Shown here: positions 16,727 through 19,151 of the stretch, one piece after another
How the letters are laid out: each line of letters begins with the position of its first letter
Position numbering within the stretch: the stretch's first letter is position 1
Assembly: GCA_964545855.1 (NCBI GenBank)
Contig: CAZJHD010000001.1
Span: forward strand, 84,065 to 148,064
DNA from: an uncultured Planctomycetales bacterium
Lineage (GTDB): Bacteria; Planctomycetota; UBA1135; JACQFD01
Direction: 5' to 3'
DNA: 64,000 nucleotides
Program-made: the position numbers and the translations under genes
Notes under the pieces: generated by a model
Database searches by the model: none
Seen by the model: only the letters and a program-made list of their open reading frames with translations
Told to the model about the DNA's origin: nothing

Positions 16727-16901
16727 GTTTCCGTCGCCCGTCCTCGGTTCGGCGGCGGGCGGCTCGAGTCCCCGCTTGCGCCGCTCTCGGATGCAGGGGT
16801 AGCGTGCTCCGGTCCTGGACGCTTCCCGCCCGCTTCGTGCGGGGCGATCCGGGAGCCGGCGCCCGCGAGGCGCCCGAGGGTGTGATGAGTCACTGGAGCG
16901 C

Positions 16902-19151
16902 GTGCGCAGGTCCGACGCCGGGCGTGCTGGCCGTCGGCTTGCAGAGTCTTCTCTCTCTCTCTCTCTCTCTCTCTCTCTCTCTCTCCTGAGCGCTGAAGGC
17001 GGGGCGCCCGACGAGAGCGCGCCGGAGCTCGCGCCGACGGCCGTGCGAGACGCCGGCATCGTGCTCGCCGAGAACGTCGGCCAGTGCGCGGGGCCCGCGC
17101 GCTTCGTCGTGCGGCGAGACGGCTTCACGGGCTTCCTCCTCGACGACGGCTTCGTCGTCGCGTTCGCCGGCCCGGAGGCGAAGGCGGCGTCGGTCTCCTT
17201 CGTCTTCGAGGGTGCGGCGCCGGGCGCATCGCTCGAAGGGGCCGCTCTCCGTCCGGGAGCGCACCACTACTACCGTGGCGGCGAGAGCGCGAGCTGGAGG
17301 ACGAGCGTCCCGCTCTTCCGCGAGGCCGTTCGCCGGGAGCTCCTCCCGGGGATCGACCTCGAGTGGCGCGAGCGCGAGGGGCGCCTCGAGTACGACGTGG
17401 TCGTGGCGCCGGGCGCCGATCCCCGTGAGGTGGTCGTCCGCGTCGAGGGCGCCGAGTCGCTGCAGCTCGACGCCGACGGCTCGCTCGTGATCGAGACCGT
17501 CGCCGGCAGGATCCGGCAGTCGGCTCCCGTCACCTTCGAGCGTCGCGCCGGCGGTGCGACGCGGCCCGTGCGCAGCCGCTACCGGCTGCTGGGCGGCGAC
17601 CGCTTCGGATTCGAGGCGGTCCGCCTCGACCCCGAGGCGTCGCTCGTGATCGACCCCGGAGTGATGCTCTGGGGGAGCTTCATCGGAGACCTCGGCGCCG
17701 ATCTCTGCACCGGCGTCGCCGTCTCTCGGAACATGGGCTTCTCGCACGTGACGGGGGCCACGCAATCGCTCGCGTTTCCCGTGACACCGGGGGCATTCGA
17801 CACGACCCTCAACAACAGCAATGCGTTCTCGACGGACGGCTTCGTCTCCAAGATGTCGCCGATCGGCCGCCAGCTCGTCTGGTCGACCTTCCTCGGAGGC
17901 GACGGGAACGACGCGGGGCGGGCCATCGCCGTCAGCCCGACGGATCAGGTCTACGTGACGGGGTGGACGGATTCGCCGAAGGGGGGGCCGAACCAGGTTC
18001 GATTCCCCTCGATCAACGAAATCACCAACACGATGCTTCCGATCGGCGGCGGCGACACGTTCATCGCGAAGTTCAACGCGACAGGAGGCATGCAATACAT
18101 CACCCGATTCCACGCCTCCGGCCTCGACGAAGGACAGGCGATCGCGCTCGCGCCGAACGGCGACCCCCTGATTTGTGGCCGGACGCAGTCGACCGACCTG
18201 CCCGTGACGCCGGGTGTCGTGGGACCGACCTTCAGCTCGGGGCTCTTCGATGCGTTCGTCGTGGGGCTACTGGACGTCTCCTCCGGGGCGGCTGCATCCT
18301 TCATCACGTACCTCGGCAGCGCTCCCAACCCCGCCTCGAACGACATTGACGAGGCCAACGGCATCGCCCTCGATGCGAACCAGAACGTCTGGGTGACGGG
18401 CTGGACCGACGGCCTTTCGTTCCCCGTGACTCTCGGTGCGGCACAATCGACGATCGGCGGCGGGGCCCCGCTCCTTCCTCCCGCTGACGCGTTCCTCGTT
18501 GCGCTGAATCCCTCGGCCACCGTCCTCGCCTACTCGACCTACTACGGAGGAGAAGGCGACGACAGGGCCTTTGGCATCACGGTCCACCCGACCAATGGCA
18601 CCTACATCGTGGGCGAGACCCGCTCCGTCACTCTCCCCGTCACCCCCGGCGCCTTCTCGAGCCAGCTCAACCAGGGAGCGCCGAGCCTGCCGCCGCCTCC
18701 TCCACCGTGGGATGGATTCCTCGCCCGCTTCAGCGCTCTCCCGGTCGTCCTGACGCAGTACTCGAGCTACCTCGGAGGCCCTCTCGACGACGCGGCGCGC
18801 GGCGTCGTGGCCGACAACTCCTTCGTCTTCGTGACGGGAGCGACCAACTCGCCATCGGGCATCGCGTTCGGTGCTGCGCCCTTCCAGCCGACGCTGCAGG
18901 GGCCGAGCGATGCCTTCCTCGCACGCTTCACGGCGGCGGGGGCGGGAAGCCTCGCGACCTATCTCGGCGGCTCCGCGACGGGCGGCCTCGGCTTCCTTCA
19001 GGACGAAGTGGGCTTCGGGGTCGATCTCGACGGCGCCGGCGGCTCCTATGTCGCGGGCGTCACGTATGCCGTGAACTTCCCCGTGACGCCGCTCGCGTTC
19101 GACGTGACCTACGGCGGCAGCGGCGACGGATTCCTCGTGAAGTTCCAGTGA
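16902..19151 (+). CDS. SBBP (beta-propeller repeat, PF06739-like) protein with DUF7948-like N-domain; N-terminus depends on (TC)n length
   Basis: 749 aa read from GTG 16902. It has repeated units of the type YSTYLGG.G.D.A.GIA.D..G..YVTG.T.S..FPVTPGAF (STFLGGDGNDAGRAIAV, ITYLGSAPNP, YSTYYGGEGDDRAFGITV, YSSYLGGPLDDAARGVV). The (TC)18 tract encodes S(SL)6L at codons 16-29. An alternative ATG 16885 in another frame dies just after the tract. Confidence 0.75.
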   Translation: MRRSDAGRAGRRLAESSLSLSLSLSLSLLSAEGGAPDESAPELAPTAVRDAGIVLAENVGQCAGPARFVVRRDGFTGFLLDDGFVVAFAGPEAKAASVSFVFEGAAPGASLEGAALRPGAHHYYRGGESASWRTSVPLFREAVRRELLPGIDLEWREREGRLEYDVVVAPGADPREVVVRVEGAESLQLDADGSLVIETVAGRIRQSAPVTFERRAGGATRPVRSRYRLLGGDRFGFEAVRLDPEASLVIDPGVMLWGSFIGDLGADLCTGVAVSRNMGFSHVTGATQSLAFPVTPGAFDTTLNNSNAFSTDGFVSKMSPIGRQLVWSTFLGGDGNDAGRAIAVSPTDQVYVTGWTDSPKGGPNQVRFPSINEITNTMLPIGGGDTFIAKFNATGGMQYITRFHASGLDEGQAIALAPNGDPLICGRTQSTDLPVTPGVVGPTFSSGLFDAFVVGLLDVSSGAAASFITYLGSAPNPASNDIDEANGIALDANQNVWVTGWTDGLSFPVTLGAAQSTIGGGAPLLPPADAFLVALNPSATVLAYSTYYGGEGDDRAFGITVHPTNGTYIVGETRSVTLPVTPGAFSSQLNQGAPSLPPPPPPWDGFLARFSALPVVLTQYSSYLGGPLDDAARGVVADNSFVFVTGATNSPSGIAFGAAPFQPTLQGPSDAFLARFTAAGAGSLATYLGGSATGGLGFLQDEVGFGVDLDGAGGSYVAGVTYAVNFPVTPLAFDVTYGGSGDGFLVKFQ
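16950..16985 (+). repeat. Perfect (TC)18 dinucleotide microsatellite inside the 5' coding region of the SBBP gene
   Basis: Read directly from the sequence: t16950 c16951 ... t16984 c16985. I noticed no other dinucleotide tract of comparable length in the window. Confidence 0.95.

Follow-up and report, generated by a model that had tools for sequence, protein, structure and literature searches.

A (TC)18 microsatellite in the signal-peptide region of a planctomycete DUF7948/SBBP gene as a candidate slipped-strand switch

A perfect run of 18 TC units near the 5' end of a gene for a predicted secreted protein raises the question of whether gain and loss of units turn that gene on and off, or whether the run is an accident of replication, sequencing or assembly. 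The gene, whose product combines a DUF7948 domain with SBBP beta-propeller repeats, lies in a stretch of 64,000 nucleotides (the window) from contig CAZJHD010000001.1 of an uncultured Planctomycetales bacterium. The arrangement of repeat, reading frames and signal peptide leads us to propose, tentatively and with a probability of roughly 0.45, that the tract is a candidate slipped-strand ON/OFF switch of this protein, which would be ON only when the number of TC units (n) equals 2 modulo 3.

The TC tract and the frames that enter it

The presence of a perfect 36-bp TC tract, claimed from a first reading of the letters, was evident both from the raw sequence and from Tandem Repeats Finder (TRF), which agreed on 100% matches and zero indels.

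16950-16985, plus strand: (TC)18 microsatellite (TRF, sequence, uniqueness in the window)

The tract stands alone in a window of 72% GC. Matches to a 12-mer TC probe, with up to one mismatch allowed, were confined to it within the window, and the TC 12-mer count of the window was reached by none of 100 dinucleotide-preserving shuffles. In regular-expression scans of the 64 kb, other dinucleotide runs were exclusively of the CG/GC type, with at most 7 units, and homopolymers of 8 or more nucleotides were not found. The earlier remark that no comparable tract had been noticed is thus borne out by TRF, probe and pattern scan alike, this being the sole long microsatellite in the window. The tract is not explicable by base composition, and its length and purity as a simple sequence repeat (SSR), a feature of contingency loci, are far beyond chance. 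It is also stop-free, encoding alternating Ser and Leu in all three plus-strand frames.

The start and stop codons of the three frames that enter the tract are listed here with the open reading frame (ORF) that follows.

16885-16989, plus strand: frame-1 leader ORF, from ATG 16885 to TGA 16987-16989, translated as MSHWSACAGPTPGVLAVGLQSL(LS)6 and a stop

16876-16880, plus strand: Shine-Dalgarno (SD)-like GAGGG, 4 nt ahead of ATG 16885 (sequence)

16804-16884, plus strand: possible N-terminal extension of the frame-1 leader (alternative starts GTG 16804, 16837 and 16882; codon score)

16895-16904, plus strand: GGAG (16895-16898), a 3-nt spacer and GTG 16902, an alternative start that is in the frame of the body at n = 18

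16883-16888, plus strand: two TGA stops (16883 and 16886) that close the third frame (sequence, frame-2 translation)

16986-19151, plus strand: gene body in frame 0, comprising the c-region LSA, a linker, DUF7948 and SBBP repeats, with no internal stop

In agreement with the original prediction, ATG 16885 with its GAGGG leads to the TGA directly after the tract, GTG 16902 with its GGAG is in frame with the propeller body, and the third frame, closed by stops at 16883 and 16886, contains no ATG, GTG or TTG between TGA 16886 and the tract. The peptide proposed for the GTG frame was correct in its (SL)6 and in its LSA-EGG junction and had one S too many, the actual reading being ...LAES(SL)6LSA-EGG. 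GTG 16902 opens an ORF of 749 codons that ends at 19151, and at n = 18 the frame-1 leader and the mature protein do not share a frame.

Changes of one unit alter the reading frame, and the resulting three length classes correspond to the ATG-16885 frame, the GTG-16902 frame and the closed frame. Frame arithmetic, checked by hand, indicated that the body is joined to the GTG-16902 frame at n = 18 and to the ATG-16885 frame at n = 17 or 20, while at n = 16 or 19 it falls in the closed, startless third frame. The earlier calculation that loss of one TC unit or gain of two would fuse the ATG-16885 leader to the body was correct on recheck.

The encoded protein and its leader

Domain searches placed DUF7948 at amino acids 57-252 (numbered from GTG 16902; Pfam, 4.4e-43) ahead of SBBP beta-propeller repeats (4.5e-18). 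Matches to PF25778 (148.3 bits, cut-off 27) and PF06739 (65.4 bits, cut-off 20.5) were both above the curated cut-offs, and Pfam and NCBIfam returned DUF7948 and SBBP only. In searches that covered 5.8 billion proteins, the sole close match was an identical sequence, P0001, which forms a protein cluster of one member; the next best match had no more than 37% identity. Among SBBP matches that carry taxon names, metagenome-assembled genomes (MAGs) of Planctomycetota were the most frequent taxon. Glutamate dehydrogenase had its best matches in MAGs of Pyrinomonadaceae (Acidobacteriota), at 68% identity, and in the planctomycete Rohdeia mirabilis, at 64%; by protein similarity a planctomycete-like affiliation is plausible.

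In homologues, an N-terminal signal peptide precedes the conserved motif LPLxFxxNxGQ. In 60 homologues with this motif, the leader before it had a median length of 47 aa, and its peak hydrophobicity, taken as the highest 10-residue Kyte-Doolittle mean (KD10), had a median of 2.48 and a 10th percentile of 1.84. The version of the motif in the gene studied here, IVLAENVGQ, begins about 28 codons 3' of the tract, and because homologue leaders precede the motif, the tract occupies the place of the signal-peptide hydrophobic core. The earlier placement of the tract in the signal-peptide-coding 5' end of a secreted SBBP gene is accordingly upheld by the domains and by the signal peptides of homologues. 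A surface-exposed or secreted product was indicated by the DUF7948 and SBBP architecture, by those signal peptides and by neighbouring genes that also encode signal peptides. Putative cleavage, judged from the -3/-1 rule, is after LSA and before GAA 16995.

The public gene call for this locus begins 3' of the tract.

17043-17045, plus strand: database start GTG, from the sole record of the protein (P0001, 702 aa)

Here a gene caller has masked a frame problem that is linked to the repeat. Taken at face value, it would place the tract in a 5' untranslated region, where the repeat would act, if at all, at the level of DNA or RNA, as H-DNA or as an unstructured pyrimidine leader. The fact that the only database call starts at GTG 17043 speaks for this arrangement. 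However, the product that starts there is without a signal peptide, unlike homologues, and the coding signal in the frame of the body continues upstream of 17043 as far as the tract (+7.6 bits for 16986-17042). The RNA of 16860-17010 folded no more stably than shuffled sequences (z = +1.16), Rfam returned two matches only, both far under their gathering scores, and a scan of 16500-17100 for consensus promoters and terminators found nothing. We consider a start at 17043 with an untranslated tract very improbable.

The leader frame was examined with codon log-odds trained on 15 long genes of the window and computed in 15-codon windows under 3-frame and 6-class models. Upstream of the tract, frame 1 was best in all windows that start from 16785 to 16920, at approximately 0 to +4.5 bits, the remaining two frames lying between -8 and -23 bits. 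At 16732-16803 frame 1 scored -25 bits; from about 16800 on, its score was above zero, with +14.9 bits under the 3-frame and +6.7 bits under the 6-class model. From the 3' end of the tract onward frame 0 became the best frame, with +404 bits over the 702 codons of the body. Since frame 1 is best upstream and frame 0 downstream, the coding frame shifts from 1 to 0 at the tract. Three minus-strand ORFs that overlap the tract or the leader scored as non-coding (-31, -91 and -156 bits).

A programmed ribosomal frameshift or other recoding site at this transition was considered and rejected: a stimulatory RNA structure was not found (z = +1.16), Rfam gave no near-threshold match and there were no orthologues from which to judge conservation. 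A +2 tRNA slip on the CUC repeats is conceivable but unsupported.

Directly 5' of the tract, frame 1 encodes the 21-residue peptide SHWSACAGPTPGVLAVGLQSL, which is uncharged, has a KD10 of 2.07 and contains a hydrophobic segment, VLAVGLQSLL, that is independent of the repeat. The h-region of the ATG leader had been described as the more hydrophobic of the two, with which this peptide is in agreement. Among six-frame 21-mers of the window, 0.55% were uncharged and stop-free and 0.18% in addition had a KD10 of at least 2.0. The GTG frame reads ESLERVRRSDAGRAGRRLAES, and its only hydrophobic stretch is the repeat. With n = 2, the ATG frame would yield a natural-looking signal peptide, MSHWSACAGPTPGVLAVGLQSLLLSA up to the cleavage site and EGG after it, and, from a reading of the raw sequence, CTTCTCCTG is suggested as the sequence from which the tract expanded. 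Most likely, the ATG-16885 frame and not the GTG-16902 frame encodes the genuine signal peptide, because of the uncharged hydrophobic peptide, which is the stronger argument, and of the codon statistics, which are weak alone. Its start may be ATG 16885 or GTG 16804. The GAGGG at ATG 16885 carries little weight as evidence because SD use is patchy in this genome; in the other genes of the window SD motifs are irregular, and 11 of the 11 assigned start codons are ATG.

Opposed to this assignment is a scheme, put forward in the original prediction, in which n = 18 is ON through GTG 16902 with (SL)6 as hydrophobic core, n = 17 or 20 is a second ON state and n = 16 or 19 is OFF. At n = 18 the only in-frame leader is indeed that of GTG 16902, for which the repeat would serve as core, the ATG-16885 leader requiring n = 17 or 20. 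Sharing the frame of the body, the GTG leader MRRSDAGRAGRRLAES has a typical positive n-region with 5 Arg, the KD10 of (SL)6L (1.96) exceeds the 10th percentile of homologue leaders, if only within their lower range, and LSA-E conforms to the -3/-1 rule. On the other hand, the codon score of this leader (-16.3 bits) equals the mean of known off-frames, the GGAG is just 3 nt from GTG 16902, the start codon departs from the ATG assigned to the other window genes, and an alternating Ser-Leu core is putative only as an export signal. Its place in the frame of the body stands; its standing as the genuine leader is not supported. Homology of the GTG leader with the tandem paralogue downstream (RRSDAG compared with RRDAG) was rejected, 262 of 2000 shuffles scoring as well. 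We regard two working leaders at this locus as unlikely. Distinctly unlikely, too, is the wider proposal that a dinucleotide repeat encoding a signal-peptide core in every frame in a free-living planctomycete-like host of 72% GC would act through two productive leaders as a graded three-state export switch, with three-unit steps tuning the length of the core. What survives of the earlier switch is the movement of the body across three upstream frames with changes of one unit; its three-state version is speculative, and an ordinary one-in-three switch is likelier.

A candidate switch and competing explanations

In the proposed one-in-three switch, the leader would start at ATG 16885 or farther upstream in the same frame, cross the tract as (LS)n and meet the ...LSA-EGG... 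of the mature protein only at n = 2 modulo 3 (17 or 20). At n = 18 the leader ends at TGA 16987, directly 3' of the tract, and the exported protein would be OFF or weakly made from GTG 16902 with (SL)6 as a makeshift core; the assembled allele is thus probably in an OFF or weak alternative-leader state. Gain or loss of TC units in replication would turn export and expression on and off reversibly, and three-unit steps would alter the hydrophobic core by two residues. Long pure dinucleotide tracts slip often during replication, and homopyrimidine/homopurine mirror repeats can adopt H-DNA, a structure regarded as favouring slippage. From this general behaviour of microsatellites the population would be expected to be heterogeneous in n. 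We infer hypermutability of the tract by analogy with long pure dinucleotide repeats; reversibility and any selective value would follow by the same kind of analogy. The layout matches that of a slipped-strand contingency locus, and the presence of the two halves of a signal peptide on either side of the tract argues for one continuous module. An OFF allele in the consensus is unsurprising because two length classes out of three are OFF and because 150 of 536 compiled oipA sequences from Helicobacter pylori were OFF alleles (PMC10564699).

Several observations weigh against this reading. The regular-expression scan of the 64 kb found no second SSR, which gives no hint of a contingency strategy across the genome. 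Evidence on variation in tract length is limited to one assembly, the protein cluster having one member and the next homologue at most 37% identity. DNA scans anchored on the flanks, with tract length left variable, gave 0 matches in genome contigs and 0 in metagenome contigs, and a run of (SL)3 or longer occurred in none of 120 homologues. A metagenome scan for (TC)10 followed by a gap of 35-65 nt and codons for F..N.GQ returned 50 loci, none of them DUF7948/SBBP by tblastn; all 50 were of 28-59% GC, and the scan was one of limited sensitivity. Codon statistics are a weak guide to leaders: the leaders assigned in the window scored from -5 to +18 bits and that of the paralogue -25 bits, and after these poor scores of genuine leaders, chiefly the paralogue's, codon usage was down-weighted as an arbiter of the leader frame. 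The n-region of the ATG leader is without Lys or Arg unless the start is GTG 16804 or 16837, an N-terminal extension that would supply Arg residues; Lys and Arg are also missing from the n-region of 10 of the 60 homologue leaders. Finally, at n = 17 the uncharged stretch would reach 35 aa, long by the standard of cleavable signal peptides.

Some of the same observations would be expected if a CTTCTC seed had expanded by slippage without selection for switching, leaving a frameshifted gene, or young pseudogene, whose tract mutates. The best leader and the body are in different frames in the assembled allele, the locus stands alone, no pattern of such tracts being seen in the family or the window, the adjoining paralogue could cover the function, and selection in prokaryotes generally acts against dinucleotide SSRs (PMC4060949). 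Decay of the gene is, however, hard to reconcile with a body of more than 702 codons that is stop-free and has a strong coding signal (+404 bits; GC content at third codon positions, GC3, 0.85) or with the perfect purity of the tract, which implies recent or ongoing slippage. Because body (702 codons) and tract are both intact, any frameshifting expansion would have to be very recent. The tract also lies in a rare spot, estimated at about 1-2% of the window, where all frames are open and hydrophobic. Accidental expansion is for these reasons judged unlikely.

The frame transition could also originate in the consensus. If the true length were 17 or 20 units, the gene would be intact with the ATG-16885 signal peptide, and an assembly or polishing error in tract length would likewise put a frame transition exactly at the repeat. 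The origin of the sequence from a single contig of 282 kb is in keeping with such a miscount, and errors of sequencing or assembly are among the listed causes of apparent frame transitions (PMC3711429). A tract of 36 bp is nevertheless readily spanned by short reads, and 17-20 units at this place would still be a slippage hotspot, so that a miscount, which we consider unlikely, would change the state that is called and not the mechanism.

More drastic errors of assembly, namely a chimeric join or the false insertion of low-complexity sequence, would fit the finding of no second copy of the locus in scans of genome and metagenome contigs. Low-complexity repeats can nucleate misassemblies. Against such an origin, the tract is flanked by complementary halves of one signal peptide, the n- and h-region on its 5' side and the LSA site and DUF7948 on its 3' side, and GC content is continuous across the region; an artefact of this kind is exceedingly improbable.

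Neighbouring genes and relation to known switches

The gene with the tract is followed by a second gene of the same family.

19169-21763, plus strand: tandem paralogue of 35% identity that has no repeat and whose signal peptide is ordinary (domain search, BLASTP)

The earlier description of this paralogue and its ordinary signal peptide was confirmed. The accompanying statement that homology begins just after the tract was incorrect, the BLASTP alignment starting at aa 64 of one protein and aa 69 of the other, approximately 35 residues past the tract, and a MAFFT alignment of the DNA of both 5' ends was uninformative. The n-region of the paralogue (19172-19237) has atypical codon usage (-25 to -33 bits) with many T- and A-ending codons. 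Within it, at about 19187-19207, a pyrimidine-rich run, CACCTTCCTTCCCCTCGTCGC, was noted that is not a repeat and is the type of sequence able to yield a TC tract. At its C-terminus (21300-21763) the paralogue has a domain of some 150 aa (...GTGTPGCLGP...LAMTVIP) that resembles, by eye, the C-termini of P0003, P0011, P0016 and P0018, some of them from Planctomycetota MAGs; the first SBBP gene (end at 19100-19151) stops just short of where a domain of this type would begin. GC3 of the two SBBP genes (16803-21763) was 0.85 and 0.81, compared with 0.91-0.96 in neighbouring genes, which could stem from a difference in expression, from relaxed selection or from a foreign origin.

A gene for an FG-GAP repeat protein (13698-16649) precedes the first SBBP gene. 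Downstream of its stop (16649), a hairpin was noted at 16657-16725 (-64.4 kcal/mol, z = -7.7, unique in the window), with perfect arms of 17 bp at 16657-16673 (GGCCCCGAATCATTCAC) and 16709-16725 (the complement), an inner GC stem and no T-run. It is probably a factor-independent-like terminator or an insulator between the FG-GAP and SBBP genes. Together with an ORF that encodes a signal peptide (11798-13615), the FG-GAP gene and the two DUF7948/SBBP genes belong to a series of genes at 11798-24782 whose products are large secreted repeat proteins, which suggests a cell-surface or exoprotein island. Farther away, TRF returned an imperfect purine-rich tandem repeat at 29526-29567 (consensus GGAGAGGAAGAAGAGG, 2.6 copies, 81% matches) inside a long minus-strand ORF (27753-30953).

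The closest known counterparts of the proposed switch are Hop genes of H. pylori, among which oipA, hopZ and babA carry CT repeats in the signal-peptide region and are switched by slipped-strand mispairing (PMC10564699, PMC3960876). As in these genes (oipA/hopH, hopZ, babA/babB, sabA/sabB), the CT/TC repeat of the planctomycete locus is in the signal-peptide-coding 5' part, and gain or loss of units would shift the frame between signal peptide and mature protein. In contrast with the Hop/Hor outer membrane proteins, however, the planctomycete product is a DUF7948 and SBBP propeller (Pfam, NCBIfam), so that the analogy is one of mechanism and not of homology. The hosts differ as well, one being of 72% GC, apparently environmental and uncultured and the other a host-restricted pathogen with AT-rich DNA. 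With its 18 units, the tract is longer than the 5, 6, 8, 9 and 11 CT units named in the oipA compilation. It is a single locus, described from sequence features, whereas H. pylori has a repeat-bearing gene family with demonstrated polymorphism.

In Neisseria, CTCTT pentamer repeats lie in the leader-peptide coding region of opa, and a poly-G tract lies in the signal-peptide region of pilC. The planctomycete locus resembles these genes in having a pyrimidine-rich repeat that encodes a signal-peptide core, in the H-DNA-prone mirror symmetry of that repeat and in the proposed translational frame switching. It differs in its unit of 2 nucleotides instead of 5 or 1, and the Neisseria genes belong to multi-copy families of a host-adapted pathogen in which switching has been demonstrated experimentally.

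Frame transitions at repeats in genes for surface or secreted proteins are a signature of phase variation (PMC3711429), and with SSR contingency loci of Haemophilus, Neisseria, Campylobacter and Bartonella the planctomycete locus shares a long pure SSR in 5' coding sequence and a surface or secreted product (PMC11868660, PMC3711429, PMC11466379). Unlike those, it is unaccompanied by a second SSR locus in 64 kb. In Planctomycetes, as in other phyla, mono-, di- and trinucleotide repeats are suppressed, and the presence of long SSRs is correlated with reliance on a eukaryotic host (PMC4060949). Among non-pathogens, phase variation has been deemed possible and is little studied (PMC3711429).

The locus is thus a candidate for a known switch architecture, of the H. 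pylori CT-repeat type, with an unusual host and a protein family unrelated to the Hop proteins. SSR phase variation has been documented almost entirely in host-adapted pathogens, and annotation pipelines can conceal loci of this kind by truncating the gene to a form without a signal peptide. If the proposed switch is real, it would extend contingency loci to a GC-rich environmental lineage, where evasion of phage or predators or bet-hedging in adhesion would be examples of its use, and it would provide a functional handle on the uncharacterised DUF7948/SBBP family.

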